From: an uncultured Acidobacteriota bacterium
GTDB lineage: Bacteria; Acidobacteriota; Thermoanaerobaculia; Gp7-AA8
Direction: 5' to 3'
Length of the DNA stretch: 64,000 bases
Assembly: GCA_963822445.1 (NCBI GenBank)
Contig: CAWGHO010000002.1
Span: forward strand, 2,176,001 to 2,240,000
Shown: one piece after another, positions 3 through 50,593 of the stretch
Position numbering within the stretch: the first letter of the stretch is position 1
How the letters are laid out: the number at the start of each line of letters is the position of its first letter
Translations under genes and position numbers: made by a program
Notes under the pieces: model-generated
The model's database searches: none
Seen by the model: only the letters and a program-made list of their open reading frames with translations
What the model was told of the DNA's origin: nothing

Positions 3-467
3 TTGTTCGTGCTCGCATCGATCGCCGGAGGCGTCGGCTTCGTGATCACTGTGGTAGATCCCGGCAAGTATCGAAAAGCGGCTGTGCAAATGGCACGCGA
101 AGAGGAGGCACGACCAGCCCCCAAGGTGCCTTGGGAGGGCCTCCCTGAACTCCAAACCGTCAAACGCGGCGACTTTGCCGATGCGTTCATTAATCTCGAA
201 GAACTCGTGCGACAACTGTGGGAACACCGTACGCATGGAGAACGGCTGCGTAAGACCACAAGTTCAAGCCCTCCTGCCTTTCGTGAAATGCTGCAGGCAC
301 TCAACCTTTCTGAAGCCTTACCGCCTGCTCTCGCGAAGGAACTCGAGGCGCTGAACAGATATCGGAACCTTGTGTTTCACGGACACCTCAAGACTATTGA
401 CCCCGACATGGTGCATCGAGTGCGCGACGCCGTTACGGCAGTCGCCCAGTTGCTAAACGCGGGCTAA
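3..467 (+). CDS. Cassette protein with HEPN-like RxxxxH motif (5' partial)
   Basis: YRNLVFH motif in a helical C-terminus; stop codon lies in the attC R'' box. Confidence 0.6.
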   Translation: MFVLASIAGGVGFVITVVDPGKYRKAAVQMAREEEARPAPKVPWEGLPELQTVKRGDFADAFINLEELVRQLWEHRTHGERLRKTTSSSPPAFREMLQALNLSEALPPALAKELEALNRYRNLVFHGHLKTIDPDMVHRVRDAVTAVAQLLNAG

Positions 468-659
468 CTTTGGTGTGAAGCTGGCACGGCCCGGCTTCGG
501 CCCGGCAGCCGAGCTGCCTACGTCATCGCTAGCGTCACGGCGTCACGGCGGTTGCAGTTCGCCACTCGCAGCACGGCAATTCCTTGGCGGCAACCGCCGC
601 GCCGCTCCGGCTTCGGCACGCGGGCCCTGGCCGTGCAGCTTACACCAAGGACGTTCGGC
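462..659 (+). repeat. attC site 1
   Basis: GGCTAAC...GTTCGGC. Confidence 0.9.
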
Positions 660-760
660 GGACCGGCGTACGGGAACGGGGGAGGCCTGGCAACGGAAGA
701 CTGATAATCAGTCTGGTACACGAGGCATAACCATCGACGCGGCGCGATGCACTGGCGATG

Positions 761-1372
761 CTACGTTTTCGAGTTTTTCGTACGACCACGTTTTGGACGC
801 TCGCCGACCTTCACCGATAACACGGCCGCAAGCTCGATGAGCTGACTGCACGATTCCTCGAAAGCCGCCTGAATGGACTTGAGTTGCTGGAATGTCGCCG
901 CAGCCGAGTCTGACGCCTCGGGGGACGGCGGCCGCAGCAGCGCGTAGGTGGTTTGAGTCAAATAGCACTGCATCGCGGCCGTCAAAACTACGGTCGCCGC
1001 TGCATGAATCAGCTTTGACTGAAGTACTGTCGGGCAATCCAGCGGCCATGCGGTGTCGAGTCGCGCGAACGCTTTGCGAAACGCGTCGCTCTCGGTTCCG
1101 GCAAACTCGTGTGCTAGAGCATTCCGCATGTCGTTCCAAGCGAAGAGAACCTTGCGCGTTGCGTTCTCGCTCACCAATTCAACCAATGTTGCGAACCCGA
1201 AGCGCGGCACATCTTCGTGCGACGCCAGTAACCGAGACGCGGCAGCTGAAACCAATAAACGCTCGACCAGCATGTGCGTTTTCAATACAACCAGCTCAGG
1301 ATCTTCAATTTTATCTAGAACGCGCACCATCTGGGGCAAGTCGTTGAACCTGATTGAGCGCGTGATTGTCAT
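761..1372 (-). CDS. HEPN-like (RxxxxH) cassette protein, antisense to array
   Basis: VLKTHMLVERLL and MRNALAH motifs; ATG 1372 preceded by TAAGCT. Confidence 0.6.
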   Translation of the reverse strand: MTITRSIRFNDLPQMVRVLDKIEDPELVVLKTHMLVERLLVSAAASRLLASHEDVPRFGFATLVELVSENATRKVLFAWNDMRNALAHEFAGTESDAFRKAFARLDTAWPLDCPTVLQSKLIHAAATVVLTAAMQCYLTQTTYALLRPPSPEASDSAAATFQQLKSIQAAFEESCSQLIELAAVLSVKVGERPKRGRTKNSKT

Positions 1373-1490
1373 GTCGCTTAGCTTACGCGAAACAGCGCAC
1401 AAACCGCGGTCGTGTCGCCGAGACCTTAGATGGCCAAAAACCTGCGGCCGGAATACGACGCTTCACGGAGCGCACGTCCGACCTCGAGCC

Positions 1491-1679
1491 GCCGAACTAC
1501 TGCCAGAAGCTGGCAGCGGGCCGTTTGCCGCGCCCGCCGGCCGAGCCGGCTCGGTCGATCGAAGACGCACGGCGTCACGCCGCGTGCATCCGCGTCAAAC
1601 GGCAGTCGGCAGCACGCGGCGTGCCGCATCGCCGCACGCACGTGGGGCCTCGCTGCAGCTTAGGCGATAGACGTTGGGC
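1491..1679 (+). repeat. attC site 2
   Basis: GCCGAAC (complement of the preceding GTTCGGC)...GTTGGGC. Confidence 0.9.
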
Positions 1680-1970
1680 GGACCCGGCACGAAGACGTAG
1701 GCCCGACTTCCATTTTCGCGCTGGCAGTCGCACCGACTGAAGCGGCAGAGCCGCGCGCCAAGGCGTCCGCCACAATCGTTCGTCGTGGTACCCGCCCGGC
1801 CGCCGGCTTGTCGCAAGTGCAGCGCGCGAAACATGGTTCTCGTCGGCAGCCGGCCACAATCGCCTCAAGAGCCAAAATCCACGCCGGCCTGTCGGCCGAG
1901 CACGCGTTCCGCGTCCCTCACCATTGGGCGCGCGCGCTGCTCCCAAGCGCGCAAAGTTTTGCGTGTGGCC
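1674..1970. repeat. ORF-less cassette family A, copy 1
   Basis: ~297-bp body GGCGGAC...GTGTGGCC repeated 8 times in the window. Confidence 0.85.
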
Positions 1971-2160
1971 GCCCAACAACTCACAGCAGCTGTCGCGGCC
2001 CGGCTTCGGCCCGGCGGCCGAGCCGCCTGGGCCGAACAGTACCGGCGCGGCGTCACGCCGGCTGCAGATCGGTTCGTTCGTTAATCGCCGGCAGCCGGCG
2101 TGCCGCGCTGCAGTAGCCACGCGGGCCCTGGCCGCGCAACTGAGTGAGATGACGTTGGGC
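1971..2160 (+). repeat. attC site 3 (family-A subtype)
   Basis: GCCCAACAACTCAC...GTGAGATGACGTTGGGC. Confidence 0.9.
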
Positions 2161-2452
2161 GGACTCGGCACGAATAGGTAGGCCGGACTTCTATTACGCG
2201 TTGGCAGACGCACCGACTGAAGCGGCGGAGCCGCGCGCCAAGGCGTCCGCCACAATCGTTCGTCGTGGCTCCCGCCCGTCCGCCGGCTCGTCGCACGTGC
2301 AGCGCGCGCGAAGCATGATTCTCGTAGGCAGCCGGCCATAATCTCCGCGAGATCCAAGATCCGAGCCGGCCTTGCGGCCGAGCACGCGTTCCGCGTCCGC
2401 CATCATTCGGCGCGCGCGCTGCTCCCAAGCCCGGAAGGTCATGCGTGTGGCC
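2155..2452. repeat. ORF-less cassette family A, copy 2
   Basis: Homologous to copy 1, in tandem. Confidence 0.85.
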
Positions 2453-2642
2453 GCCCAACAACTCACAGCAGCTGTCGCGGCCCGGCTTCGGCCCGGCGCT
2501 GAAGCGCCTAGGCCGAACAGTACCGGCGCGGCGGCACGCCGGGCCGCAAATCGGTTCATTCGTTAATCGCCGGCAGCCGGCGCGCCGCGCTGCCGTAGCC
2601 GCGTGGGCCCTGGCCGCGCAGCTGAGTGAGATGACGTTAGGC
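2453..2642 (+). repeat. attC site 4 (family-A subtype)
   Basis: GCCCAAC...GTTAGGC. Confidence 0.9.
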
Positions 2643-3902: not shown

Positions 3903-4089
3903 GCCTAACTACTGCCCGCAGCTGTCAGCGGCCCGTTTGCCGCGCCCGGGGCTGAAGCCCCTCGATCCTACCAAGGCGCACGGCGGCACGCCGCTCGCAG
4001 ATCGGTCGACGTCAATCGCGGCGAGCGGCGCGCCGCTCTGCCCGCGCGCGCATGGGGGCTCGCTGCAGCTGAGGCGACAGACGTTAGGC
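3903..4089 (+). repeat. attC site 5
   Basis: GCCTAAC...GTTAGGC. Confidence 0.9.
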
Positions 4090-4371: not shown

Positions 4372-4989
4372 ATGGCCGTAGACCCGAAGGTTAAGGCTTT
4401 AGGCGAACGATTGCTCGCCTTCATGGCGGAGTTTCGTGCTGAAACGGATCGGGCGGCAGCAATTGTCGGTGCGGCCAAGCTTGACTACCTTCTTTATCAG
4501 CTACTCAGTAAATTTCTGCTTCCGCCCACATCAAACAACGACGATTTTCTCGAGGGCGATGCACCTCTCTCGACATTCAGCGCGCGCATTCATGCATGCT
4601 TTCGACTCGGTCTGATTGACGCGCAGTTTGCCAGAGCACTGCACATGATTCGACGCTTACGGAACACATTTGCGCATGAGCCATCCAGCTGCTCATTTCA
4701 ATCGGGTCCACATCACGATCGAGTTCGCGAACTTGTCAATCCGTTCGCGAATAACCCAGGATTTCTGGATATGCGCACCGTGTTCGCTCACGACAAGCCC
4801 GGCGCGGCAGGCTACTTCTACACCATTCTTGGCATATTGATCGTTGGACTAGAAGCGAAGATCGACGAAGTCGTAATGTTGAAGCCGGGTGAGCCCCGTC
4901 AGGTGATTCCTTCATCCTACACGGAGCGTTCACTGGATCGCGACGCCGACGGCAAGCTGGTCAATCTCAAGAAATCCGACGGCGCCTAA
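4372..4989 (+). CDS. MltR/MtlR-like HEPN-domain protein
   Basis: ETDRAAAIVGAA, PLSTFSARI and IRRLRNTFAH motifs; GGAGG before ATG 4372. Confidence 0.8.
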   Translation: MAVDPKVKALGERLLAFMAEFRAETDRAAAIVGAAKLDYLLYQLLSKFLLPPTSNNDDFLEGDAPLSTFSARIHACFRLGLIDAQFARALHMIRRLRNTFAHEPSSCSFQSGPHHDRVRELVNPFANNPGFLDMRTVFAHDKPGAAGYFYTILGILIVGLEAKIDEVVMLKPGEPRQVIPSSYTERSLDRDADGKLVNLKKSDGA

Positions 4990-5183
4990 CTACTGCCAGG
5001 AGCTGTCGGCGGGCCGTTTGCCGCGCCCGGCGCTGAAGCGCCTCGTTCAGCGTCGAATGGCCGGCGGCACGCCGGCCGACATGCTCTCGCGCCGCTGATC
5101 GCGGCGCGACTCACTGCAGCCGTCGCGCCGCGCCGCCGCACGCACGTGGGGCCTCGCCGCAGCTCAGGCGATAGACGTTGGGC
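4984..5183 (+). repeat. attC site 6
   Basis: GCCTAAC...GTTGGGC. Confidence 0.9.
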
Positions 5184-5477
5184 GGACTCGGCACGAAGAA
5201 GGTAGGCCCGACTTCCATTTACGCGTTGACAGTCGCACCGACCGAAGCGGCGGAGCCGCACGCCAAGGCGTCGGCCACAATTTTTCGTCGTGGCACCCGC
5301 CCGCCCGCCGGCTTGTCGCACGTGCAGCGCGCGCGAAGCATGATTTTCGTCGCCAGCCGGCCACAACATCCTCGAGACGCATCAGCGAGGCCGGCCTGTC
5401 GGCCGAGCACGCATTCCGCGTCCGGCACCATTTGGCGCGCGCGCTGCTCCCAAGCGCGCAAGGTTATGGGTGTGGCC
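5178..5477. repeat. ORF-less cassette family A, copy 3
   Basis: Homologous to copy 1. Confidence 0.85.
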
Positions 5478-5666
5478 GCCCAACAACTCACAGCAGCTGT
5501 CGCGGCCCGGCTTCGTCCCGGCGCTGAAGCGCCTGGGCCGAACAGTACCGGCGCGGCGGCACGCCGGCCGCAATTCGGTTCATTCGTTAATCGCCGGCGG
5601 CCGGCGCGCCGCGCTGCCGCAGCCACGCGGGCCCCGGCCGCGCAGCTGAGTGAGATGACGTTGGGC
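5478..5666 (+). repeat. attC site 7 (family-A subtype)
   Basis: GCCCAAC...GTTGGGC. Confidence 0.9.
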
Positions 5667-5954
5667 GGACCCGGCACGAAGACGTAGGCCCGACTTCTAT
5701 TTTCGCGTTGGCAATCGCACCGACTGAAGCGGCGGAGCCGCGCGCCAAGGCGTCCGCCCCAATTCTGGTCGTGGCACCCGCCCGTCCGCCGGCTTGTCGC
5801 ACGTGCAGCGCGCGCGAGGCGTGGTTTTGCGTAGGCCGGTGACCACAAACCTCGAGACGCAGCGACGAAGCGGGCCTTCGGCCACGCGCGCTCCGCGTCA
5901 TGCACGATCGGGCGCGCGCGCTGCTCCCAAGCGCGGAAAGTTATGCGTGTGGCC
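5661..5954. repeat. ORF-less cassette family A, copy 4 (variant centre)
   Basis: Homologous ends; central segment shared with copy 7. Confidence 0.85.
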
Positions 5955-6144
5955 GCCCAACAACTCACAGCAGCTGACGCGGCCCGGCTTCGGCCCGGCG
6001 GCCGAGCCGCCTAGGCCGAACAGTACCGGCGCGGCGGCACGCCGGCCGCAAATCGGTTCATTCGTTAATCGCCGGCAGCCGGCGCGCCGCGCTGCCGCAG
6101 TCGCGTGGGCCTTGGCCGCGCAGCTGAGTGAGATGACGTTGGGC
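5955..6144 (+). repeat. attC site 8 (family-A subtype)
   Basis: GCCCAAC...GTTGGGC. Confidence 0.9.
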
Positions 6145-6435
6145 GGACTCGGCACGAAGAGGTAGGCCCGACTTCCATTTACGCGTTGGCAGTCGCACCG
6201 ACCGAAGCGGCGGAGCCGCGCGCCAAGGCGTCCGCCACAATTGTTCGTCGTGGTACCCGCCCATCCGCCGGCTCGTCCCACGTGCAGCGCGCGCGAAACA
6301 CATTCTTTCGTAGGCCGGTCGCAATCGCCGCGATTGCCGCGATCCCCGCCGGCCTGTCGGCCGAGCACGCATTCCGCGTCCGTCACCATTCGGCGCGCGC
6401 GCTGCTCCCAAGTGCGCAAAGTTATGCGTGTGGCC
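6139..6435. repeat. ORF-less cassette family A, copy 5
   Basis: Homologous to copy 1. Confidence 0.85.
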
Positions 6436-6625
6436 GCCCAACAACTCACAGCAGCTGTCGCGGCCCGGCTTCGGCTCGGCGGCCGAGCCGCCTAGGCCGA
6501 ACAGTACCGGCGCGGCGTCACGCCGGCTGCAGTTCGGTTCATTCGTTAATCGCCGGCAGCCGGCGCGCCGCGCTGCCGTAGCCACGCGGGCCCTGGCCGC
6601 GCAGCTGAGTGAGATGACGTTAGGC
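6436..6625 (+). repeat. attC site 9 (family-A subtype)
   Basis: GCCCAAC...GTTAGGC. Confidence 0.9.
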
Positions 6626-6681: not shown

Positions 6682-7539
6682 ATGGATGAACGAAGCCTGC
6701 GCGACGCACTCTTTCAAAGTACGGTTCGTATCGTAGTGACCAGTCGCCGCGAGGGCTCAACCATTCGACTCGTCGATCCACCCGAGGTGGCCACGGGCTT
6801 TCTGCTGCAACCCCCGACGCGAGTGGTCGCGAAGCCTCAGATATTCGTCGTCACCGCCGCGCATGTTGTTGAAGATGCGGAGGATGCGAGCATTTACTTC
6901 TTTCGGAGGGTACCTGGGCCTGACGGATCTAGACTGTTCGAATTCAGACGGAAGGCTTTCTTCGGAGAACTCTGGCATTACTCGACCGACAGAGAACTAG
7001 ACATCGCCGTTACGCCAGTCGCACCCAGTAGTGAAATCGCCAGCGCCGTTCAAGACGTGCAGGCGCAGCTTACGGCTTTCATGTTGTACGACGGCCGATT
7101 AGACTCGCACGGACATCCATTCAAAACGCACGACTTTGAAGAGGTGTTATTTGCAGGCTACCCCCGAGGATATTGGGATCCTTTGTCCGGCTCACCGATC
7201 GTCAGGCGTGGCGTGACAGCGACGCCGCTTAGCGTGGACTACCATGGCGCCCCAGCATTCCTGGTCGACGGGGCGGTGTACCCCGGCTGCAGCGGCGGAC
7301 CGGTGGTGGTCATTGAGCAAGAAGTCATTGTGCCATTCGGCCTACCTGTCGAATGGATCGAATATCAGACAATCCGGCTTGAGGAGCGGTTCAGGTTTCT
7401 GGGCATGATCACGCACGTTCAGCATGAGCAAGGCAATCCCCACGCGCTCCTTAATCTGGGTCGTGCGATCAAGGCGGACGCAATCTTCAGCACGATCCGC
7501 CACTATACGCAGCTCACAGATAGCCGAGGGTCAGCCTAA
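6682..7539 (+). CDS. Trypsin-like serine protease
   Basis: ATGF, VTAAHV, LDIAV and YPGCSGGPV motifs. Confidence 0.85.
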   Translation: MDERSLRDALFQSTVRIVVTSRREGSTIRLVDPPEVATGFLLQPPTRVVAKPQIFVVTAAHVVEDAEDASIYFFRRVPGPDGSRLFEFRRKAFFGELWHYSTDRELDIAVTPVAPSSEIASAVQDVQAQLTAFMLYDGRLDSHGHPFKTHDFEEVLFAGYPRGYWDPLSGSPIVRRGVTATPLSVDYHGAPAFLVDGAVYPGCSGGPVVVIEQEVIVPFGLPVEWIEYQTIRLEERFRFLGMITHVQHEQGNPHALLNLGRAIKADAIFSTIRHYTQLTDSRGSA

Positions 7540-7721
7540 CTACTGCCAGAAGCTGCCGGCGGGCCGTTCGCCGCGCCCGGCGGCCGAGCCGCCTACTACC
7601 TCTCGAGATGCGCGGCGTCACGCCGCTTGCATCCGCGTCAACGTCAAATGCGGCAAGCGGCGCGCCGCTCTGCCCGCAGGCACCGGGGGCCTCGCCGCAG
7701 CTTAGGCGATAGACGTTAGGC
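7534..7721 (+). repeat. attC site 10
   Basis: GCCTAAC...GTTAGGC. Confidence 0.9.
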
Positions 7722-9223: not shown

Positions 9224-9411
9224 GCCTAACTACTGCCAGGAGCTGTCGGCGGGCCGTTTGCCGCGCCCGGCGGCCGAGCCGCCTAGCGCGTCCCGAGAGG
9301 CATGGCGTCACGCCGCTTGCAACCGCGTCAACGTCAAATGCGGCAAGCGGCGTGCCGCTGTCGCCGCATGCATGCGGGGCCTCGCCGCAGCTCAGGCGAT
9401 AGACGTTAGGC
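9224..9411 (+). repeat. attC site 11
   Basis: GCCTAAC...GTTAGGC. Confidence 0.9.
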
Positions 9412-9998: not shown

Positions 9999-10742
9999 TT
10001 GGTGGCTGTGGAAAACAATACAAGATCTCAGGCACGCAAGCTATCTAAGCAGCTCGACGACGATCGATCTCAGCTATTTGACCAGTTATACCGGACTCAT
10101 TACTCCCGACTCTGTATGTTTCTGACACGCCTAGGGTTAGCCAGCGAGGACGCTAACGAACTTGCTCAGGAAGCGTTCGTCAGGGTCTACGAGCGCTTAG
10201 ACCATTATCGCGGCGAGGCCGAATGGTCGTATCTCGAGGTGACTGCTCGACACGTCCTTTTTAACTGGCTGCGCAGCAAGCAAGCAGCGAAGCGGCAAGC
10301 CAAGTTTGTATCGTTCACCGAGGGCCTTGATGACGCTGTTGCCTCCGACGACACACCGGAGGCAGCGTTACTTGAGCAGGAGGCGGAGAAGGCCGCTTGC
10401 GACGAACGAAGAACTCAGATGGAGCACTTGAAGAGCGCTATCCAAAGGCTGCCCCCGGCGACTGGAAGTTGCCTCCTGCTGGCGTTAGCCGGGTACAACC
10501 ACTCAGATATCGCAAAACAACTGCGAATTACTCCGGCCGCGGTCAAATCTAGGCTACATGACGCACGACAGAAACTCAGGTCGCTAACCAACCCGCAAGG
10601 ACGGGCAGAAGCTCGGGCTGTGTCGACAGCAGCTAGCTGTCAGCGAGCGAGCGCTGAAAGGTACGTCAAGATCGCTGAATTACAACGCAACGGGTCCACG
10701 CGGGCGGAGACCGCTAATGGGAGGCGTCGAAACGCGGCCTAA
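9999..10742 (+). CDS. ECF-type RNA polymerase sigma-70 factor
   Basis: Region 2 (DANELAQEAFVRVY, WSYL..TARH) and region 4 (DIAKQLRITPAAVKSRLHDARQKL); start uncertain. Confidence 0.85.
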   Translation: MVAVENNTRSQARKLSKQLDDDRSQLFDQLYRTHYSRLCMFLTRLGLASEDANELAQEAFVRVYERLDHYRGEAEWSYLEVTARHVLFNWLRSKQAAKRQAKFVSFTEGLDDAVASDDTPEAALLEQEAEKAACDERRTQMEHLKSAIQRLPPATGSCLLLALAGYNHSDIAKQLRITPAAVKSRLHDARQKLRSLTNPQGRAEARAVSTAASCQRASAERYVKIAELQRNGSTRAETANGRRRNAA

Positions 10743-10934
10743 CTACTGCCAGGAGCTGTCGCGGCCCGGCTTCGGTCCGCCGGCCGAGCCGGCTGCTTTT
10801 TCGCCAGCGTGACGGCGTCACGGCGTTGCAGTTCGCCACTCGCTGCATGGGCAGTTCATTGGCGGCAACTGCCGCGCCGCTCCGGCTTCGGCACGTGGGC
10901 CCTGGCCGCGCAGCTCAGGCGATAGACGTTGGGC
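10737..10934 (+). repeat. attC site 12
   Basis: GCCTAAC...GTTGGGC. Confidence 0.9.
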
Positions 10935-11226
10935 GGACTCGGCACGAAGAGTAGGCCGGACTTCCATTGACGCGTTGGCAGTCGCACCGACTGAAGCGGC
11001 AGAGCCGCGCGCCAAGGCGTCCGCCACAATTGTTCGTCGTGGTTCCCGCCCATCCGCCGGCTTGTTGCACGTGCAGCGCACGCGAAACATGATTTTCGTC
11101 GGCAGCCGGCCACAATCTCCGCGAGAGCCACCCTCCACGCCGGCCTGGCGGCCGAGCACGCATTCCGCGTCCGCCACGATTCGGCGCGTGCGCTGCTCCC
11201 AAGCGCGGAAAGCTATGCGTGTGGCC
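10929..11226. repeat. ORF-less cassette family A, copy 6
   Basis: Homologous to copy 1. Confidence 0.85.
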
Positions 11227-11415
11227 GCCCAACAACTCACAGCAGCTGACGCGGCCCGGCTTCGTCCCGGCGCTGAAGCGCCTGGGCCGAACAGTACCGG
11301 CGCGGCGGCACGCCGGCCGCAGATCGGTTCATTCGTTAATCGCCGGCGGCCGGCGCGCCGCGCTGCCGCAGCCACGCGGGCCCTGGCCGCGCAGCTGAGT
11401 GAGATGACGTTAGCC
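11227..11415 (+). repeat. attC site 13 (family-A subtype)
   Basis: GCCCAAC...GTTAGCC. Confidence 0.9.
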
Positions 11416-12314: not shown

Positions 12315-12509
12315 GGCTAACTACTGCCAGAAGCTGGCACGGCCCGGCTTCGGCCCGGCGGCCGAGCCGCCTACAGCATCGCAGCGTGACGGCGTCACGG
12401 CGGTTGCAGTTCGGCAGTCGTTGCTGCAACTTCTCGCCGGCAACCGCCGTGCCGCTCGGGCTTCGGCACGCGGGCCCTGGCCGTGCAGCTTAGGCGATAG
12501 ACGTTAGCC
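12315..12509 (+). repeat. attC site 14
   Basis: GGCTAAC...GTTAGCC. Confidence 0.9.
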
Positions 12510-12680
12510 AGACCGGCGGACGCGGAGCGCAACCGACGCACAAGTTCGCGGAACGCAACCACAGCGCGCGTGGCATGATCGATCGCAACTGCTCACTATC
12601 GTTGCGCTCCACCAGTCCACCGGCATGGCTAACTTTCATCATTCCGTCGTCGCGACGTCCGGTCGATCCCATAATAGACA

Positions 12681-12988
12681 TTCCCCCTGCAGCTGACAGC
12701 ATCGCAAGATTGCGGGCCGCGACCAGCCAAAGTGCGCCCGCCCCCCGCGCCGTTGTGCAGTAGACCCCTTCACACCCGCTCCACCACCCGCGGTAGGCCT
12801 ACTGCACAACGGCGCACCCTCCCGGGCGCCAGCTCGTCGCGGCCCTGAATGTGCGCATCCACCCGACCTCGCGCGTCGAACTCACGAATTGATCCGTGTC
12901 ACGCGGTTGCAGATGGCTTCCTCCGGCGAATCATCAGTCGCCGCAACCGCGTGCCACGGGAAGACCGTGAATTCGACGCGCTCACACC
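12681..12988. ncRNA. Candidate structured element family B, copy 1
   Basis: Two long hairpins with compensatory changes across 4 copies; RNA versus ssDNA role unknown. Confidence 0.5.
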
Positions 12989-13097
12989 CGGGAGATCGCT
13001 GCCCCCCGACCCGCGAGAGCGACACGTCGTGATCAGGCCCGATGTGTCGGCGTGATCTAGATGCTCCAGGTTGTAAACCACCAGTTTCGGTATGAAC

Positions 13098-13430: not shown

Positions 13431-13627
13431 GGCTAACTGCTGCCAGCAGCTGACAGCGGCCCGTTTGCCGCTCCCGGGGCTGAAGCCCCTTTTTCCTCCC
13501 GAGACGAACGGCGACATGCCGCTTGCAGATCGCTCCCGCCGACTGGTCGTTAGTCGCGGCAACCGGCCTGCCGCGCGAACCGCACGCGCGCGGGGGCTCG
13601 CTGCAGCTGAGGCGACGTACGTTAGGC
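13431..13627 (+). repeat. attC site 15
   Basis: GGCTAAC...GTTAGGC. Confidence 0.9.
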
Positions 13628-29645: not shown

Positions 29646-29706
29646 GGCATCAATATACTTGCCTCACCTGTCGAGAGACGGTAGGATGCTGTAACAGTCC
29701 TAATCC

Positions 29707-36873: not shown

Positions 36874-36878
36874 GTTAG
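35943..36878 (+). CDS. IS481-family DDE transposase
   Basis: Same protein as 27354-28289; TAG stop supplied by the target GTTAG. Confidence 0.95.
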   Translation: MDVHKNARSCPLSRALLVKRVCEQGWSVREASEAAGMSDRRGREWIRRGLRVEPLNDRSSRPHRGRATSDIKRQRVLSLRREWRTVRQIAQAVGVSASTAARICRSAGLARLRQLEPATVPIRYEKERPGELVHIDIKRLGRFNRVGHRITRRRSFGSKKQGFEFVYVATDDFTRLSYVDVLADERSETASSFLTRAVAWFAQRNVIVERVMTDNGSAFISRDFRDTCSRLNLTHVRIRPYTPRTNGKAERFIQTLLREWAYRFSYHSSEERRRWLAPYLHFYNYHRAHTALSYNPPISRLDRNNVLRRNS

Positions 36879-37770: not shown

Positions 37771-37971
37771 GCCTAACTACTGCCAGGAGCTGTCGGCGGG
37801 CCGTTTGCCGCGCCCGGCGCTGAAGCGCCTCGTTCGGCGTCGAATGGCCGGCGGCACGCCGGCCGACATGCTCTCGCGCCGCTGGTCGCGGCGCGACTTG
37901 CTGCAGCCGTCGCGCCGCGCGAACCGCTCGCACGCGGGGCCTCGCCGCAGCTCAGGCGATAGACGTTAGGC
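37771..37971 (+). repeat. attC site 31
   Basis: GCCTAAC...GTTAGGC. Confidence 0.9.
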
Positions 37972-38791: not shown

Positions 38792-38990
38792 GCCTAACTA
38801 CTGCCAGGAGCTGTCGGCGGGCTTGCTCCGTGGCCCGTCGGCCGAGCCGACTCGGCCGACTCAAACCTGCGCGGCGTCACGTCCGTTGCAGTTCGCTCCT
38901 GCCGTCAAAGGCGTTGGTCGCGGCAACGGCCGCGCCGCTCTGCTGGTTGCGCCGTTGAACCCGCCGCAGCTCAGGCGATAGACGTTGGGC
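38792..38990 (+). repeat. attC site 32
   Basis: GCCTAAC...GTTGGGC. Confidence 0.9.
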
Positions 38991-39275
38991 GGACCCGGCG
39001 CGAAACGTAGGCCGGACTTCTATTTACGCGTTGGCAGTCGCGCCGACAGAAGCGGCGTAGCCGCGCGCCAAGGCGTCCGCCGCCATTTTCGTCGTGGTAC
39101 CCGCCCGCCCACCGGCTGCTCGCACCAGCAGCGCGCGCGGGGCACGATCTGCGTAGGCCAGTGACCACAAAACTCGAGACGCACTGACGTAGCGGGCCTT
39201 CGGCCACGCGCGCTTCGCGTCGTGCACCATTTGCCGCGCGCGCTGCTCCCAGCGCGCAAAGCTGTGCGTGTGGCC
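38985..39275. repeat. ORF-less cassette family A, copy 7 (variant centre)
   Basis: Homologous to copy 4. Confidence 0.85.
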
Positions 39276-39464
39276 GCCCAACAACTCACAGCAGCTGTCG
39301 CGGCCCGGCTTCGGCCCGGCGCTGAAGCGCCTGGGCCGAACAGTACCGTCGCGGCGGCACGCCGGCCGCAATTCGGTTCATTCGTTAATCGCCGGCAGCC
39401 GGCGCGCCGCGCTGCCGTAGCCACGCAGGCCCTGGCCGCGCAGCTGAGTGAGATGACGTTAGCC
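39276..39464 (+). repeat. attC site 33 (family-A subtype)
   Basis: GCCCAAC...GTTAGCC. Confidence 0.9.
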
Positions 39465-40426: not shown

Positions 40427-40623
40427 GGCTAACTACTGCCAGAAGCTGGCACGGCCCGGCTTCGGTCCGGCGGCCGAGCCGCCTGCATCATCGCCAGCGG
40501 CACGGCGTCACGGCGGTTGCAAATCGGCAGGCGTTGCATGCAACTTCTCGCCGGCAACCGCCGCGCCGCACGGGCTTCGGCACGTGGGCCCTGGCCGTGC
40601 AGCTTAGGCGATAGACGTTAGCC
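40427..40623 (+). repeat. attC site 34
   Basis: GGCTAAC...GTTAGCC. Confidence 0.9.
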
Positions 40624-40664: not shown

Positions 40665-41693
40665 TTGAAGCTTTTCTATAGTTATTCATCGTCCGATGAG
40701 TCGTTCAGAAGCGAGTTCGAAGACCACCTTTCGTTACTCAAACGCGACGGCCTTCTGGAAACGTGGTCATTTCGAAATATCAGTGCTGGTTCAGATTGGG
40801 AGCGCGAGATCGACGACCGCCTTGCGATTGCCGACATCGCGCTCCTTTTGGTCAGTGCCAGTTTCATCGCGTCGAGATACTGCTGGGAGGTTGAACTGCG
40901 TCACGCGATCAAACGAGTGGACCGTGGCGAGATGCTCCTCATACCGGTTGTCATTCGCCCATGTGATTGGCAAACGGCACCGTTCGCCCGCTTCCAGGCT
41001 TTACCGGACGGCGCGAAGCCTGTCACATCGTGGCGTCCGCGTGACCGAGCGTGGGCGAATGTGGCAGCCGGGCTTCGAAACTTGATCGAAGCGAAGAGAA
41101 ATCCAACTGCTGCAACGACGGCTATTCACAATTCAGAGATGGGCAAACGTCAGATTGCGCAGGCGTTTCAACAGGCCCGTGAAGCCACTGATCACGCAGA
41201 TAGGCGTCATAAGCGCCTCGTGCGACAGGTAAACGAGCGTCGCATGAACCTGTTGACTGAATTGCCGCATCTACATAACGCAGTGGCGCAGCTCGTTGCG
41301 CATATCGCGCCAGAATTCGCGCCGACGCTGTCGATCGAGGGCGAACGGCTGACGATTGTGAGAGATCGAATACGTATGGTGGTTGAGCCTTCCGACAGCG
41401 GCCATAACTTAACGGTGACATTGGCGCGGTATGATAGCTCCAACGGTATTACGTTTCTAGGAATTGAAGTGATGGTGCATACAGTGATGTTACTTCGGAA
41501 CGTGACCAGAAAGTGGCGCGTGGAGACCGAGCACGTTTGGCGCCGGGAACTGACCGATAATGTTGAGACTTGGATATGGAGTCACGCGACGAGAGAACTG
41601 AAGGCGAACACCGAAGAGCTAGCGAGTCTGCTGCTTAGACGGTTTGCAGATCGCTGCGCAGGTCTCACGAACCCGGATAATGCCGCCGGCTAA
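40665..41693 (+). CDS. TIR-domain protein
   Basis: KLFYSYS, LLLVSASFIASRYCWEVEL and IPVVIRPCDW motifs. Confidence 0.9.
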   Translation: MKLFYSYSSSDESFRSEFEDHLSLLKRDGLLETWSFRNISAGSDWEREIDDRLAIADIALLLVSASFIASRYCWEVELRHAIKRVDRGEMLLIPVVIRPCDWQTAPFARFQALPDGAKPVTSWRPRDRAWANVAAGLRNLIEAKRNPTAATTAIHNSEMGKRQIAQAFQQAREATDHADRRHKRLVRQVNERRMNLLTELPHLHNAVAQLVAHIAPEFAPTLSIEGERLTIVRDRIRMVVEPSDSGHNLTVTLARYDSSNGITFLGIEVMVHTVMLLRNVTRKWRVETEHVWRRELTDNVETWIWSHATRELKANTEELASLLLRRFADRCAGLTNPDNAAG

Positions 41694-41884
41694 CTACTGC
41701 CAGAAGCTGGCACGGCCCGGCTTCGGTCCGCCGGCCGAGCCGGCTGCATCATCGCCAGCGTGACGGCGTCACGGCGGTTGCGGTTCGGCAGGCGTTGCAT
41801 GCAACTTCTGGCCGGCAACCGCCGTGCCGCTCGGACTTCGGCACGTGGGCCCTGGCCGTGCAGCTTAGGCGATAGACGTTAGGC
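41688..41884 (+). repeat. attC site 35
   Basis: GGCTAAC...GTTAGGC. Confidence 0.9.
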
Positions 41885-42090
41885 CGTCCGTGGCCACAAC
41901 GCTTCGCGTTCTTGTGAGCCCTTCGTCGCATTCACAGTTCTCATACCCTCCAGCCCCCCCTCGCAGTGTCGAAGGTGACGGGCGGCTGCCACCGATAAAA
42001 TGTTCCCCATCGAGTGGATCCGATCCCATGTCGATTTCATCTGCCACGGACATTTTTACGACCCTCTCCGTTGCATGCCGCTGCGGCACG

Positions 42091-42406
42091 TTCCCCCCAC
42101 GCAGCTGCCGACACCGCGATATCGCGGGCCGCGACCAGCAAAACGCGCCTCCCGCATGCCCAAGGGTGCCGTCGGTCCCTTCAAACTCGCCCACCAACCG
42201 CGGTAGACCGACGGCACCCTTGGGCATCACACCCTCCCGGCGCACGCTCGTCGCGGCCCTGACTTCACCCGCCGCCCACCCTCGCGCGCCGAACTCGCGA
42301 ATGCGTGCCGTGACACTGCGGTTGCATATCGCTCCCCGCTGACGGGGTTGTTAGTCGCGGCCAACCGCCGCGCCACGGGCGGTGACCGTGAATTCGGCGC
42401 GCTCAT
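42091..42406. ncRNA. Candidate structured element family B, copy 4
   Basis: Same architecture; leader from R' onward is homologous to that of copy 2. Confidence 0.5.
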
Positions 42407-42475
42407 GCCCGACGACTGCTGCTACCACCCGGACGCAGGGCTTTCGTTGAGCTCCGCAGGACTAGAATGTTCGCT

Positions 42476-43291: not shown

Positions 43292-43491
43292 GCCTAACTA
43301 CTGCCAGGAGCTGTCAGCGGGCCGTTTGCCGCGCCCGGCGCTGAAGCGCCTCGTTCAGCGCTGAATGGCCGGCGGCACGCCGGCCGACATGCTCTCGCGC
43401 CGCTGATCGCGGCGCGAATCACTGCAGCCGCCGCGCCGCGCACCCGCTCGCACGCGGGGCCTCGCCGCAGCTCAGGCGACAAACGTTAGCC
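43292..43491 (+). repeat. attC site 36
   Basis: GCCTAAC...GTTAGCC. Confidence 0.9.
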
Positions 43492-44429: not shown

Positions 44430-45365
44430 CTAACTGTTGCGTCTCAGGACGTTGTTCCGATCCAGGCGACTGATGGGTGGATTGTAAGAGAGCGCGGTAT
44501 GCGCTCGGTGGTAGTTGTAGAAGTGAAGGTACGGTGCGAGCCAACGGCGCCGTTCCTCGGAGCTGTGGTACGAGAACCGATAGGCCCATTCGCGCAGCAG
44601 CGTCTGGATGAACCGCTCCGCTTTACCGTTCGTCCGTGGTGTGTACGGCCGGATGCGGACGTGAGTGAGGTTCAGGCGGCTGCAGGTATCCCGGAAGTCG
44701 CGTGAGATGAAGGCCGATCCGTTGTCGGTCATCACCCGCTCGACGATGACATTCCGCTGAGCGAACCACGCCACCGCCCGAGTCAAAAACGAGCTGGCAG
44801 TCTCGCTACGCTCATCTGCCAGGACGTCGACGTAGGAGAGTCGGGTGAAGTCATCCGTCGCGACGTACACGAACTCGAAGCCCTGCTTCTTTGAGCCAAA
44901 CGATCGACGCCTGGTGATGCGGTGTCCCACTCGATTGAACCGTCCCAGGCGCTTGATGTCGATGTGCACCAGTTCCCCCGGACGCTCCTTCTCGTACCGA
45001 ATTGGCACTGTTGCCGGCTCAAGCTGACGCAACCGAGCCAGCCCTGCTGACCGGCAGATCCGCGCTGCTGTCGACGCACTCACGCCCACTGCCTGCGCGA
45101 TCTGTCGCACAGTCCGCCATTCGCGGCGAAGACTCAGAACACGCTGTCGTTTTATGTCGCTCGTGGCCCGGCCCCTGTGCGGTCTGGAGCTCCGATCGTT
45201 AAGCGGCTCGACCCTCAGACCACGACGGATCCACTCCCGCCCTCGCCGGTCACTCATACCGGCGGCCTCCGACGCCTCGCGCACCGACCATCCTTGTTCG
45301 CAGACTCGCTTGACCAGCAGTGCTCGACTCAACGGGCAGCTTCGCGCATTCTTGTGCACGTCCAT
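44430..45365 (-). CDS. IS481-family DDE transposase
   Basis: Same protein as the other two copies. Confidence 0.95.
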   Translation of the reverse strand: MDVHKNARSCPLSRALLVKRVCEQGWSVREASEAAGMSDRRGREWIRRGLRVEPLNDRSSRPHRGRATSDIKRQRVLSLRREWRTVRQIAQAVGVSASTAARICRSAGLARLRQLEPATVPIRYEKERPGELVHIDIKRLGRFNRVGHRITRRRSFGSKKQGFEFVYVATDDFTRLSYVDVLADERSETASSFLTRAVAWFAQRNVIVERVMTDNGSAFISRDFRDTCSRLNLTHVRIRPYTPRTNGKAERFIQTLLREWAYRFSYHSSEERRRWLAPYLHFYNYHRAHTALSYNPPISRLDRNNVLRRNS

Positions 45366-45468
45366 CTGGGTTCCTTCCTGTCAACCTGTTCGTTTGAGAG
45401 CTTTCAGATTGACGAAAGTCGCCCGGATGGACAACCCGCTTCAAGGAACAACGTCCTGACACATCACA
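44435..45468 (-). mobile_element. IS481-family element copy 3, inserted in attC R''
   Basis: 1034 bp; flanks GCTAAC and CCTAAC (not identical). Confidence 0.95.
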
Positions 45469-45664
45469 CCTAACTACTGCCAGGAGCTGTCGCGGCCCGG
45501 CTTCGGTCCGCCGGCCGAGCCGGCTGCTTTTTCGCCAGCGTGACGGCGTCACGGCGGTTGCAGTTCGGCAGGCGTTGCATGCAACTTCTCGCCGGCAACC
45601 GCCGCGCCGCTTCGGCTTCGGCACGTGGGCCCTGGCCGCGCAGCTCAGGCGATAGACGTTGGGC
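45469..45664 (+). repeat. attC site 37 (IS481 at R'')
   Basis: CCTAAC...GTTGGGC. Confidence 0.9.
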
Positions 45665-46600: not shown

Positions 46601-46796
46601 GCCCAACTACTGCCAGAAGCTGGCACGGCCCGGCTTCGGTCCGCCGGCCGAGCCGGCTGCATCATCGCCAGCGTGTCGGCGTCACGGCGGTTGCAGATCG
46701 CCAGTCGTTGCGGGCAACTCCTCGCCGGCAACCGCCGTGCCGCTCGGCTTCGGCACGTGGGCCCTGGCCGTGCAGCTTAGGCGATAGACGTTGGGC
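46601..46796 (+). repeat. attC site 38
   Basis: GCCCAAC...GTTGGGC. Confidence 0.9.
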
Positions 46797-47089
46797 GGAC
46801 CCGGCACGAAGAGGTAGGCCCGACTTCCATTTACGCGTTGGCAATCGCACCGACTGAAGCGGCGGAGCCGCGCGCCAAGGCGTCCGCCACAATTGCTCGT
46901 CGTGGTACCCGCCCGTCCGCCGGCTTGTCGCACCTGCAGCACGCGCGAATCATGATTCTCGTAGGCAGCCGGCCACAATCTGCCCAAGAGCCGCTATCCA
47001 CGCCGGCCTGACGGCCGAGCACGCATTCCGCGTCGGCCATCATTCGGCGCGCGCGCTGCTTCCAAGCGCGGAAAGTCGTGCGTGCGGCC
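46791..47089. repeat. ORF-less cassette family A, copy 8
   Basis: Homologous to copy 1. Confidence 0.85.
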
Positions 47090-47280
47090 GCCCAACAACT
47101 CACAGCAGCTGTCGCGGCCCGGCTTCGTCCCGGCGCTGAAGCGCCTGGGCCGAACAGTATCGGCGCGGCGTCACGCCGGCTGCAGTTCGGTTCGTTCGTT
47201 AATCGCCGGCAGCCGGCGTGCCGCGCCCTGCCGTAGCCGCGTGGGCCCTGGCCGCGCAGCTGAGTGAGATGACGTTAGCC
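47090..47280 (+). repeat. attC site 39 (family-A subtype)
   Basis: GCCCAAC...GTTAGCC. Confidence 0.9.
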
Positions 47281-47464: not shown

Positions 47465-48127
47465 GTGCCGTCGTGGTGGATCACCGGTTTGGTGCTTCTC
47501 CTGTGTGTCGCGCAGCCGTTACAAGCGTGCTCTTGCGGTGACCGCCCAAAGGCCGCGAAGGTCTTGTCATCTCACGCTGTATTTGACGGGACGGTCGTGT
47601 CCTCTCGACCCTTCATCGATCGATCAGACGACTACTGGTACGTGCTCGAGGAATGGACGTTTCAGGTGCATAGGAGTTGGACACGAGGAGTCCAAGGCGA
47701 TGTCGCTATTCGTGCCTATCCGCATAACTGTGGCGTCTGGTTTGAGAATGGTGAGCGCGCAATTGTTGTCGCTGTCAATCGCGAAAGGCGCACACTCGGT
47801 GCGTTCAAGTGTGCCTATCCTCGCGAGAATGTTGACGTGTTAAACGCGGACCGTCTGTTGGGGCCGGCTTCGTTCCGCACCGACGGCCCGGTACGGAAAA
47901 GGAGAATCGCGCGTATCGTTAATGTGGCTCGGCGCTTGGTTCTTCACCTCATCGCGGATATCCACAACTGGATCGTTCGCTCCGGTCTTCGTGGCCGCGG
48001 CTACGGCACTGTCATTGCTTGGGCGCTGGCGACATGCGTGCTCTTCGCTATCTTGGTCGTCGTTCTATCGTTCCGGCGACTGCGAGGTCGCGACAAGAAT
48101 GAGCCGCCTTCCATGGCAGCCGGCTAA
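47465..48127 (+). CDS. TIMP/NTR-like exported protein with C-terminal TM (start uncertain)
   Basis: Signal peptide then ACSC; VFDGTVV, V..SW and CGVWF motifs. Confidence 0.65.
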   Translation: MPSWWITGLVLLLCVAQPLQACSCGDRPKAAKVLSSHAVFDGTVVSSRPFIDRSDDYWYVLEEWTFQVHRSWTRGVQGDVAIRAYPHNCGVWFENGERAIVVAVNRERRTLGAFKCAYPRENVDVLNADRLLGPASFRTDGPVRKRRIARIVNVARRLVLHLIADIHNWIVRSGLRGRGYGTVIAWALATCVLFAILVVVLSFRRLRGRDKNEPPSMAAG

Positions 48128-48320
48128 CTACTGCCAGGAGCTGCCGGCGGGCCGTTTGCCGCGCCCGGCGCTGAAGCGCCTCGTTCGGCGTTGATGGGCC
48201 GGCGGCACGCCGGCCGACATGCTCTCGCGCCGCTGATCGCGGCGCGAACACGGCGGCCATCGAGCCGCGCACCCGCTCGCACGTGGGGCCTCGCCGCAGC
48301 TCAGGCGATAGACGTTAGCC
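48122..48320 (+). repeat. attC site 40
   Basis: GGCTAAC...GTTAGCC. Confidence 0.9.
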
Positions 48321-48493: not shown

Positions 48494-48718
48494 ATGCTCG
48501 GCCAAAACGAGGTCATCCACACCGATCCCGAGATTCTTGCCGGTGAGCCGGTATTCGTCGGAACGCGAGTGCCGCTAAGAAACCTCTTCGATTATCTCGA
48601 GGCCGGCGATTCGCTCGAGGTCTTCCTCGATGCATTTCCCGATGTGACGAGGGAGCAAGCTGTGGCGGCCCTAGAACTTGCTAGAGAGGCGGTAACCGCG
48701 GGTGCGGGTTCTCGTTGA
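48494..48718 (+). CDS. DUF433 antitoxin
   Basis: DPEILAGEPVFVGTRVP...FPDVTREQAVAALE. Confidence 0.9.
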   Translation: MLGQNEVIHTDPEILAGEPVFVGTRVPLRNLFDYLEAGDSLEVFLDAFPDVTREQAVAALELAREAVTAGAGSR

Positions 48719-49025
48719 TCACTGTCTTCCGCGCCATCTAGCCGTAGAACTCACTGGTCACGAAGCCACGACGGTGCGTGCACAGCGGTGGTCCGGCCTT
48801 CGTAACGGTGTCTTGCTCCGGGCTGCGGTCGACGCAGGGTTCGACGTGTTCATCACGAACGATTCGAGCATCGAGTTTCAGCAGAACGTGAAACGCATCG
48901 GTATCGCCGTGATCGCGATCGTGGGTTTTCGAAATCGCATGGAAGACCTCAGACCTCTTCTCCCGCGGATCCTAAAGGTATTGATCACAATCAAGGCGGG
49001 CGAGCTGATAACGATCTCTCGTTAG
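48702..49025 (+). CDS. DUF5615 PIN-like toxin
   Basis: MRVLVDHCLP...FDVFITNDSSIEFQQN. Confidence 0.9.
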   Translation: MRVLVDHCLPRHLAVELTGHEATTVRAQRWSGLRNGVLLRAAVDAGFDVFITNDSSIEFQQNVKRIGIAVIAIVGFRNRMEDLRPLLPRILKVLITIKAGELITISR

Positions 49026-49197
49026 TGTTTGCGGCAAAGCACAATCCAGGGCGCGGGGTGGCATTCAGGGCTACGATGTGTTGTTATTTTCGCGTGCCGC
49101 ATGCTGCGGGACGGCGAGGTTCGGCATATGTACTCGAACGGCAGCGCTGGTGCGTTCTGCATAGCGCGCCTTGAAATCGGTGGGGAAGCGGGGCGCC

Positions 49198-49394
49198 GGC
49201 TAACTACTGCCAGAAGCTGGCACGGCCCGGCTTCGGTCCGGCGGCCGAGCCGCCTACATCATCGCCAACGGGACGGCGTCACCGCGGTTGCAGATCGGCA
49301 GGCGTTGCAGGCAACTTCTCGCCGGCAACCGCCGTGCCGCTCGGGCTTCGGCACGTGGGCCCTGGCCGTGCAGCTTAGGCGATGGACGTTAGGC
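49198..49394 (+). repeat. attC site 41
   Basis: GGCTAAC...GTTAGGC. Confidence 0.9.
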
Positions 49395-49481
49395 GTACTG
49401 CGGGCGGGAGTCGCTAGGAAGACCCCCGAAACGGCTACAAGCATGCGTTACTATCTGCTAGGATCGCCGCGAGGACACGTC

Positions 49482-50391
49482 ATGGTGGGTAAAGCAAAGC
49501 GAGCAAAGTACACTGAGCTTCTAAGACTCTTGCGCGCCGGCGACACGGAAGACAATCCTGGTGTAATCATGACGAACGGCGACGCTGTTGGCCTCGGAGC
49601 CGACCTTGATAACTATTTTGCCAGCCGTGAACACCGGCAGGCAGTACTAGGGTTAGATATCTATAAATACAGCCGCTTCGAAACTAAGCGCCAGCGCCTC
49701 GTGCCGGTACTTTTCAGGTATCTCTACGATCAGGCAATGCACTTTTGCGTCCGTGATGAGCCGTCAATATTAGCGAGCAGATTTCAAAGATAGATTCATA
49801 CCGACGGGGGATGGCGGCTTTCAAATCTTCGCGACTCCACTGCAGGCATTAGTCTTTGCGACGTTTTTTCAGTCAGCGCTCATAGGCTATAATTCTTGGT
49901 TGACCTTCCCGAAAGTTCGGCGTCTAGTAGGCGACCTGACTCTTCGCTATACGTTGACATTTGATGACGTATTTCAGCTTGACGGTAACTGGTTCGGTGC
50001 GGGCATCATAACTAACGCGCGTATCATCAGTCGCGACGCACTCAACCGTTGTCTCGCGGATGCAGCCTCTATCGCATGGTTTGCAGAGCGTATTGGCGCG
50101 ATCGAGTCCCTCCTCGTTTTGCAGGGTAGCGATCTTTTAGCCATGACTGATCGTCCGATGCAGAGCGCGCCACCTAGCCTGCTGTTTCCAAGTGCTTCGG
50201 CGGGCAACTATCCGGAAAATTCATTCAGATCCTTGAATGTGCAGAAAATCGGCAACGTTGCGGTCAAGGGGAGTGATCTTGACGTGTATAACGTGTACGC
50301 GCAAGTCGTTGTGTGTCACACGGGAGGCGATGCGCGCCGTAATGTCATAGTCACGCTCGGCAATCTGAACGCTGGTGGTGTCACGGTGTAG
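49482..50391 (+). pseudogene. Class III nucleotidyl cyclase-like protein, frameshifted near ~49785
   Basis: VLGLDIYKYS, then FIPTGDGGFQ, LRY and NWFGAGIITNARI in the second frame. Confidence 0.65.
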
Positions 50392-50393
50392 AC

Positions 50394-50593
50394 GCCTAAC
50401 TACTGCCAGGAGCTGTCGGCGGGCCGTTTGCCGCGCCCGGCGCTGAAGCGCCTCGTTCGGCGTTGAATGGCCGGCGGCACGCCGGCCGACATGCTCTCGC
50501 GCCGCTGATCGCGGCGCGACTTGCTGCAGCCGTCGCGCCGCGCACCCGCTTGCACGTGAGGCCTCGCCGCAGCTCAGGCGATAGACGTTAGCC
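50394..50593 (+). repeat. attC site 42 (last)
   Basis: GCCTAAC...GTTAGCC. Confidence 0.9.

Follow-up and report, generated by a model that had tools for sequence, protein, structure and literature searches.

The window analysed here, i.e., the whole stretch of 64,000 nucleotides at G000:C2:2176001-2240000 in the genome of an uncultured acidobacterium, carries part of a real, very large chromosomal integron with a classical integrase. We are confident that this is a sedentary chromosomal integron of a soil acidobacterium, in which the cassette recombination sites (attC) combine an ordinary core with a long, branched centre. The evidence consists of the integrase and the array themselves, the pairing constraints within the sites, a cassette-wise exchange of R-box halves, and a platform and site family that are conserved in relatives whose cassettes differ.

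To locate the sites, a profile of 18 repeats was searched with nhmmer, and all site coordinates given below rest on this search. It returned 45 matches in the window, 42 of full length and three partial ones covering the centre only. The full-length sites extend from position 462 to 50593, measure 187-201 nucleotides (nt) and matched with E values of 1e-29 to 1e-49; 41 lie on the plus strand and one is inverted (29449-29647). An initial annotation of the window had given the same number, positions and lengths and had proposed an array of superintegron scale, which the search of the whole genome bears out: the same profile gave 128 matches, 100 of them of full length, and 87 of these, each of 187-201 nt and closing a cassette, form a single array of 106 kb at C2:2120564-2226593. 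The window covers the distal half of this array (50 kb) and its right end, on a contig of 2.5 Mb that also carries dnaA.

A search of the genome with the integron integrase model TIGR02249 gave one match above the cut-off (456.4 bits compared to 265, model positions 2-313 of 315). This match, intI, lies at C2:2118113-2119048 on the plus strand, 57 kb to the left of the window, in an open frame of 321 amino acids. Aligned with VchIntIA (2A3V), IntI scored 316 bits over residues 15-319 with one gap of a single residue. The catalytic motifs GLRL, KG, HTFRHSFATH, LGH and IYTH are aligned and kept, and the IntI-specific segment NFGSVWLPTALARKFPNADREFKWQW aligns with the insertion of VchIntIA. An integrase gene had been expected to the left of the window, and it is found there with this insertion present. 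In view of the TIGR02249 score, the alignment to VchIntIA and the retention of the IntI-specific segment and the catalytic motifs, the integrase is, as judged by its sequence, canonical and not divergent. The gene is located on the same strand as the cassettes and is read towards the array, a layout described as “inverted integrase” (PMC13323075) and named as a group (PMC3575428). About 350 nt past the intI stop lies a GTTAGGC (L001:2792-2798) that is complementary to R'' (GCCTAAC) in the first attC site; it is our candidate for the attI, and a probable one.

Since intI is located on the left, in keeping with the orientation of the plus-strand open reading frames (ORFs), the plus strand is taken as the top strand of the sites and the minus strand of the window as the bottom strand. 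Eleven of the 14 cassette ORFs above the Pfam cut-off that do not belong to insertion sequences (IS) lie on the plus strand, and at 11 of the 41 plus-strand sites an ORF of at least 70 amino acids stops at a TAA within R'' (two of these 11 are IS-related). AAC and GTT are present in all 87 sites of the array. R'' mostly reads GCCTAAC (34 sites), GGCTAAC (27) or GCCCAAC (18) and R' mostly GTTAGGC (35), GTTAGCC (28) or GTTGGGC (18); the RYYYAAC/GTTRRRY rule is broken by few sites, with GCCGAAC in three and GTTCGGC in three.

On the top strand, the 7 nt of R'' are followed by 5 nt and then by the L box. Positions 15 and 16 are unpaired, a 6-bp stem at positions 17-22 is intact in 84 of the 87 sites, and position 23 is again unpaired (T in 46, G in 25, A in 13 and C in three sites). 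The extra-helical bases sit on the arm carrying the top-strand AAC and hence opposite AAC in the bottom strand. Two features of the window sites had been pointed out in the initial annotation, a top-strand G 9 nt after AAC and a distance of 11 nt between the stem and the GTT of R', and each holds for 42 of 42 sites. Across the array, the G at this position 16 is found in 86 and the 11-nt distance (a right-arm spacer of 8 nt compared to 5 nt on the left) in 85 of the 87 sites. According to PMC5027507, the arm of an attC site that faces the bottom-strand AAC carries extra-helical bases at 16 and 23/24, with 6 bp of stem in between; the same source gives the bottom-strand base at position 16 as “usually a G” and the unpaired central spacer as “usually five to six bases” per arm. 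The array sites follow the rule of positions 16 and 23 with the 6-bp stem, and depart from the usual G and from the five- to six-base spacer. On the R' side, the distance between stem and GTT is thus 11 nt instead of 9, which shows as a bulge of 3 nt beside AAC when the bottom strand is folded.

In an alignment of the 87 sites with a mean column identity of 71%, 94.5% of the cells in the named helices pair, compared to 84.7% in shuffles, and 244 cells are changed on both sides, compared to 70.5; none of 500 shuffles reached either value. The covariation score of 0.282 dropped to 0.019-0.076 when the partners were slid by 1-3 columns, and RNAalifold recovered the same helices. One arm pair is unbroken in every site, being A-T in 32, G-C in 30 and C-G in 25. 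The four arm subtypes for which covariation had been claimed (TACTGCC, AACTCAC, TTTGGTG and TCTTGTG) are all present, and the arms covary strongly. In 70 of the 87 sites the bottom strand folds more stably than the top one (mean difference 2.4 kcal/mol); it is also slightly purine-rich. In the single-stranded state, the sites should form the recombinogenic stem readily, according to prediction: the median probability of this fold is 0.59, similar to the 0.24-0.87 of the short sites of related integrons.

The R' of one site complements the R'' of the next in 80 of 84 neighbour pairs, compared to a mean of 25 and a maximum of 39 in shuffles, and three of the four exceptions adjoin IS insertions. 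Within a site, R'' and R' match in only 31 of 86 cases. Matching between neighbours is the signature expected of cassettes that were inserted one at a time with exchange inside R'. Because the arms must pair and the R-box halves sort by cassette, two independent signals, we regard the sites as real recombination sites. How the cassettes move, including recombination by the present-day IntI and the strand used, we infer from other integrons. The bottom strand, which is the minus strand of the window, would fold into an imperfect hairpin, and IntI would bind its R box (GCCTAAC/GTTAGGC) and L box. The extra-helical bases 16 and 23, opposite AAC, would mark the strand to recombine, and exchange between the G and the TT of GTT would free cassettes as circles and then re-insert them. 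Given the position of dnaA (C2:1338050) and the minimum of the cumulative GC skew near 1.46 Mb, with the array 0.8 Mb to the right, the attC bottom strands are tentatively placed on the leading-strand template. Loot et al. reported this orientation for 25 of 30 chromosomal integrons, associating it with arrays that are large and stable (PMC5371416).

The site core was compared with that of related integrons in 80 loci around IntI relatives of 50-63% identity to this IntI. Since the nhmmer site profile had no match in any of the 80 loci, this comparison was made by structure. A crude attC detector based on R-box match and fold found arrays in 10 of the 80 loci, with sites near the relatives' intI mostly of 58-124 nt; the detector misses sites and its length survey is a sample. 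At locus L013, from an Acidobacteriota metagenome-assembled genome, the sites measure 58-76 nt and show both the G at top-strand position 16 and the 9/11 spacing in 10 of 10 cases. At L075, with sites of about 123 nt, each of the two features occurs in nine of 12. The G is further present in 5/5 sites at L033, 5/5 at L062 and 2/2 at L059, and the 9/11 spacing in 2/3 at L070. The sites of L013 and L075 adjoin IntI relatives of 55-59% identity, and some subtypes of the window family have the same L-box stem sequence as L013. Thus, the sites of L013, L033, L062 and L075 share with those described here the R box (GCCTAAC/GTTAGGC), the L-box stem motif and the G at top position 16, those of L013 and L075 also the 9/11 spacing, and they differ in length (58-124 nt compared to 187-201 nt). 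We read the bottom-strand C at position 16 as a usage of this clade that is no bar to attC membership, and the site core is the one that is ordinary in this branch of integrons.

The sites stand out by their length, which lies in the branched centre, and the difference is quantitative. The two strands of the L-box stem are about 141-155 nt apart, compared to centres of 20-100 nt in the training set of IntegronFinder (PMC4889954). At 187-201 nt the sites are, as initially annotated, well beyond the published attC lengths of 57-141 bp (PMC5027507, PMC5371416), a range that is descriptive and does not constitute a definition. Folding, including that of both strands of the site at 40427-40623, yields a multi-branched centre on a basal stem of about 30 bp, and several inner helices show compensatory changes.

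The effect of length on detection was followed with a stand-in covariance model built from 14 short sites (60-101 nt) of seven loci, in which only the R, spacer and L pairs served as structure. At loci outside the training set, the model scored 39-48 bits for 19 sites of 58-76 nt at L013, 20-38 bits for five sites of 85-89 nt at L070, 15-34 bits for 17 sites of about 123 nt at L075 and 16.9 bits for the single 134-nt site at L017. For the window sites of 187-201 nt, it listed four of the 42 with default filters, at best with 12.2 bits (E = 0.24); with filters off it gave none of the 42, which is weaker evidence, the hit length probably being capped. Because the score falls with length, it is plausible that the standard IntegronFinder model would miss these sites. 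The default maximum attC size of IntegronFinder is 200 bp.

The centres had been described in the initial annotation as branched mosaics of a few modules. When the 87-site alignment was cut into nine segments and each segment clustered, 40 segment combinations were found. One hairpin has two forms, for which all four possible pairings with the arm types, and likewise with the flanking stems, are seen. The description holds to this extent, but a few classes dominate (16, 9, 7, 6 and 5 sites), the five largest of which hold 43 of the 87 sites. There has been some exchange of modules among the centres.

The core hairpin of the attC centre is also found in a structured element of about 350 nt, which heads eight cassettes with different genes, at a distance of 60-198 nt from the preceding attC site and always on the top strand. 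Four copies lie in the window and four more in L090 and L091, and full-length copies also occur in two genomes of the same genus (G067 and G083). The element consists of two long hairpin domains, the second of which has the core hairpin, and 21 of its 89 predicted pairs show compensatory changes across seven copies. A search of the segment 41900-42500, which includes one copy, gave no Rfam match at E ≤ 1, and the whole window is without an Rfam family match at gathering scores. The three partial, centre-only nhmmer matches were considered as decayed copies of a recurrent cassette of about 290 nt; this assignment was rejected, as they belong to the 350-nt element.

With the 197-nt site at 40427-40623 as query, full-length relatives of 70-87% identity were found in 31 of 72 genomes of the same family, a tally that takes in the unpublished genome G179, and in 15 of 17 genomes of the genus; among 228 genomes from 20 other families of the class there were none. 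An integron integrase above the TIGR02249 cut-off is present in 38 of 81 genomes of the family, including the unpublished G175. In G103, intI (71% DNA identity), its upstream flank (78%) and four same-strand long attC sites are kept, with no cassette in common, and G203 and G067 have the same kind of array. A platform and site family held in common, with cassettes that differ, is what characterizes a sedentary chromosomal integron. Among public runs, only three soil metagenomes, from as many studies, contain a small share (0.06) of the sampled words, in each case as contigs. Their contigs of at least 90% likeness pile up on attC sites and IS parts and not on the cassette genes of the window (38000-47900; runs X1-X3 with 644, 397 and 7 pieces). 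In this contig cover, uncovered parts carry no meaning, and apparent joints connect repeats with unknown sequence in between. Cover of attC sites without the cassettes of the window fits a wider cassette pool.

From the geometry and length of the sites, the initial annotation had inferred a divergent IntI/attC system. In such a system, the changed extra-helical base, the longer L'-R' side and the long centre would reflect a co-evolved integrase acting on sites of altered geometry outside the classical integron rules. The position aligned with VchIntIA W157, a residue that takes part in binding of the extra-helical base, reads as R in the alignment of this IntI. Such a system would also account for the bottom-strand C at position 16, for the 9/11 spacing, for a length outside the published 57-141 bp (PMC5027507) and for the failure of a covariance model from short attC sites to find the window sites. 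However, neither the G at position 16 nor the 11-nt spacing marks a divergent system, because both are found in the 58-124-nt sites of relatives, as in 10 of 10 sites at L013. The extra-helical bases keep their canonical positions 16 and 23 with the 6-bp stem between them, IntI reaches a full TIGR02249 score and aligns end to end with VchIntIA, and the miss by the stand-in model is explained by length and not by geometry, since its score falls steadily with site length. We therefore consider divergence highly improbable and do not uphold this part of the annotation. The long centre could also be a hairpin module of about 100 nt with a function or mobility of its own, nested in the loop of an ancestral short attC and travelling with it ever since; it might serve as a binding platform or a regulatory RNA, or be a small hairpin that is itself mobile. 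The core hairpin does occur without R and L boxes inside the 350-nt element at the head of eight cassettes, hairpin modules are seen in all four combinations with arm types, and some centre helices (helix 4) never vary in sequence. This origin nonetheless seems unlikely to us, as the module is seen in this genome, beyond the copies of that element, only in attC sites or their remnants and matches no Rfam family, and as 87/87 array sites and the sites of relatives carry a full-length centre, which descent from one long ancestor fits equally well. There is a small chance that the core hairpin of about 100 nt is a functional module common to the attC sites and the strongly covarying 350-nt element, serving as a docking platform for an accessory factor of host or integron or as a cis-acting RNA or DNA signal. 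If so, the attC sites would be bifunctional and their length selected rather than tolerated.

A further possibility is that the array consists of real parts that are now static, a fossil whose sites may have become poor substrates through their long, GC-rich centres and which is kept only by vertical descent. Three R boxes are interrupted by IS copies, there is a transposase of the IS1595 type as well as a single inverted site, and no read-level sign of excision is seen in public runs that hold contigs only. The sites have a G+C content of 71% and thus form a very stable duplex, long sites of the Vibrio cholerae repeat (VCR) type are reported to be poorly extruded from double-stranded DNA (PMC5371416), and bottom strands on the leading-strand template represent an orientation linked to low excision. 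Against this stand an open intI of 321 codons with its catalytic motifs kept, arm pairing preserved through 244 cells with two-sided changes, and R-box halves that match cassette by cassette in 80 of 84 cases. Moreover, one cassette type occurs 12 times, both scattered and in tandem, related species have the same platform and site family with none of the compared cassettes in common, and 13 more full-length sites are found elsewhere in the genome. A static array is thus rather improbable, and we retain the reading of a sedentary chromosomal integron with ordinary-core, long-centred sites.

Several points weigh against this reading. Position 16 of the bottom strand is a C, and not the usual G, in 86 of the 87 sites, and the bottom-strand fold has a 3-nt bulge beside the cleaved AAC; to our knowledge, no integrase has been assayed on a site with such a bulge. 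The folding probability barely separates the strands, being higher for the bottom than for the top strand in only 47 of the 87 sites, and the attI is a candidate only. Neither circles nor excision joints are readable in the public runs, which hold contigs only and mostly cover repeats, and the three IS481-family copies, the IS1595-type transposase and the inverted site indicate some decay. The GC skew used for orientation is weak and noisy around the array, for which reason dnaA was used as well. Finally, the assembly is of the metagenome type, with three contigs, 94.7% completeness and 2.45% contamination, and an array so rich in repeats could be misassembled.

Table 1 Features of the window. 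Positions refer to the window; +, top strand of the array.
Feature	Position	Strand	Remark
attC site	462..659	+	First in window; TTTGGTG type; R'' overlaps stop of ORF 3-467
attC site	1491..1679	+	
attC site	1971..2160	+	AACTCAC type; closes ~290-nt, probably gene-less cassette
attC site	2453..2642	+	AACTCAC type
attC site	3903..4089	+	
attC site	4984..5183	+	
attC site	5478..5666	+	AACTCAC type
attC site	5955..6144	+	AACTCAC type
attC site	6436..6625	+	AACTCAC type
attC site	7534..7721	+	
attC site	9224..9411	+	
attC site	10737..10934	+	
attC site	11227..11415	+	AACTCAC type
attC site	12315..12509	+	
attC site	13431..13627	+	
attC site	14461..14657	+	TTTGGTG type
attC site	15740..15936	+	Top match of stand-in model, 12.2 bits
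attC site	16809..17007	+	
attC site	18168..18363	+	
attC site	19241..19436	+	
attC site	20651..20850	+	
attC site	21662..21850	+	
attC site	23013..23202	+	TCTTGTG type
attC site	24399..24597	+	
attC site	25559..25748	+	
attC site	28392..28587	+	R'' (ACCTAAC) adjoins IS481-family insertion
attC site	29449..29647	-	Only inverted site
attC site	33178..33376	+	
attC site	34418..34614	+	
attC site	35644..35840	+	R' (GTTAGGT) adjoins IS481-family insertion
attC site	37771..37971	+	201 nt, longest in window
attC site	38792..38990	+	
attC site	39276..39464	+	AACTCAC type
attC site	40427..40623	+	Both strands folded; query of genome survey
attC site	41688..41884	+	
attC site	43292..43491	+	
attC site	45468..45664	+	R'' (ACCTAAC) adjoins IS481-family insertion
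attC site	46601..46796	+	
attC site	47090..47280	+	AACTCAC type
attC site	48122..48320	+	
attC site	49198..49394	+	
attC site	50394..50593	+	Last of array; chromosomal backbone beyond
Cassette tail	1..461	+	Cassette begins left of window; ORF 3-467 stops at TAA within R''
~480-bp cassette	1680..2160		Probably gene-less
~480-bp cassette	2161..2642		Probably gene-less
~480-bp cassette	5184..5666		Probably gene-less
~480-bp cassette	5667..6144		Probably gene-less
~480-bp cassette	6145..6625		Probably gene-less
~480-bp cassette	10935..11415		Probably gene-less
~480-bp cassette	38991..39464		Probably gene-less
~480-bp cassette	46797..47280		Probably gene-less
~350-nt element	12674..13006	+	
~350-nt element	23272..23604	+	
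~350-nt element	25808..26158	+	
~350-nt element	42082..42433	+	
IS481-family copy 1	27354..28391	-	Ends approximate; in R'' core
IS481-family copy 2	35841..36878	+	Ends approximate; in R' core
IS481-family copy 3	44430..45467	-	Ends approximate; in R'' core
TIR-domain gene	50618..52063	-	Directly after last attC site
Chromosomal backbone	53057..62872	-	Glycogen/trehalose-type genes and a beta-lactamase-fold gene

Cassette products with Pfam matches comprise PIN, DUF433 together with DUF5615, three TIR-domain proteins, an ECF sigma factor, peptidases and an FRG-domain protein, and many cassette ORFs are without a Pfam match. Overall, the contents look like those typical of other chromosomal integrons. 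DUF433 and DUF5615 (PIN-like) form a pair in one cassette (20985-21637), lone DUF5615-type genes are found at 18899-19243 and 48702-49022, and a PIN gene is located on the minus strand at 16127-16507; the DUF433/DUF5615 and PIN cassettes probably encode toxin-antitoxin systems. In a further cassette, tandem units of 21 nt (at least 11 copies, 13092-13424) fill an ORF of 110 codons.

A cassette of about 480 bp, consisting of about 290 nt of content and an AACTCAC-type attC, is present in 12 copies in the array, eight of them in the window, in tandem as well as scattered. No frame is kept across the 12 copies when a conserved ORF is sought; their ends are conserved and the middle is variable, and the cassette is probably gene-less.

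The three IS481-family copies are near-identical, and each interrupts an attC R box at its CTAAC/GTTAG core, which looks like target-specific insertion. The inverted attC site opens the segment 29449-33177 and is followed by 3.5 kb with an IS1595-type transposase (31376-32365) and a CrtO-like acyltransferase (32433-33080), both on the minus strand. This arrangement could not be derived from a single inversion or from a single insertion in the wrong direction.

Outside the array, 13 more full-length sites, along with fragments, are spread over all three contigs, far from intI, singly or in small clusters (C1:1228039-1231767, C2:480934-493881, C3:1333651-1336343 and C3:1356219-1357416, plus single sites). 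Clusters of attC sites without an integrase were reportedly described by Cury et al., and the small clusters found here resemble them.

One bacterial family thus combines classical integron integrases with a family of attC sites of about 190 nt, and these long sites offer a natural test of the extent to which the attC centre can lengthen with the R/L core remaining canonical. In soils, the Acidobacteriota belong to the dominant bacteria. If the standard model behaves like our stand-in, cassette surveys of soils would undercount a large gene pool. In a study of permafrost soil, 97.4% of the contigs with an integron-type recombinase were not called complete by IntegronFinder, for which novel attC sites were given as one possible cause (PMC13323075). 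We found no description of these long acidobacterial attC sites in the literature searched, the supplements of which (e.g., the attC sets of PMC8352920 and PMC4889954) could hold some.

With the “inverted integrase” integrons, the system shares an intI read towards the array and attC sites downstream on the same strand, a layout seen here and in G103, G203 and G012. Known examples, such as that of Treponema denticola, differ from the integron described here in their short sites and small arrays. In most other respects, the array resembles the superintegron of Vibrio cholerae: both are sedentary chromosomal arrays of about a hundred cassettes, with a homogeneous, lineage-wide attC family, a branched site centre, cassettes of toxin-antitoxin or defence type and bottom strands on the leading-strand template (PMC5371416), and the two integrases align at 316 bits. 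The VCR sites, however, are mostly 120-129 bp long (PMC5371416), compared to 187-201 nt here. The acidobacterial system further differs from that of Vibrio cholerae in that intI lies on the same strand as the cassettes, the extra-helical bottom-strand base is a C instead of a G, three extra unpaired bases are located beside R', and the host is an acidobacterium with a G+C content of 64%.

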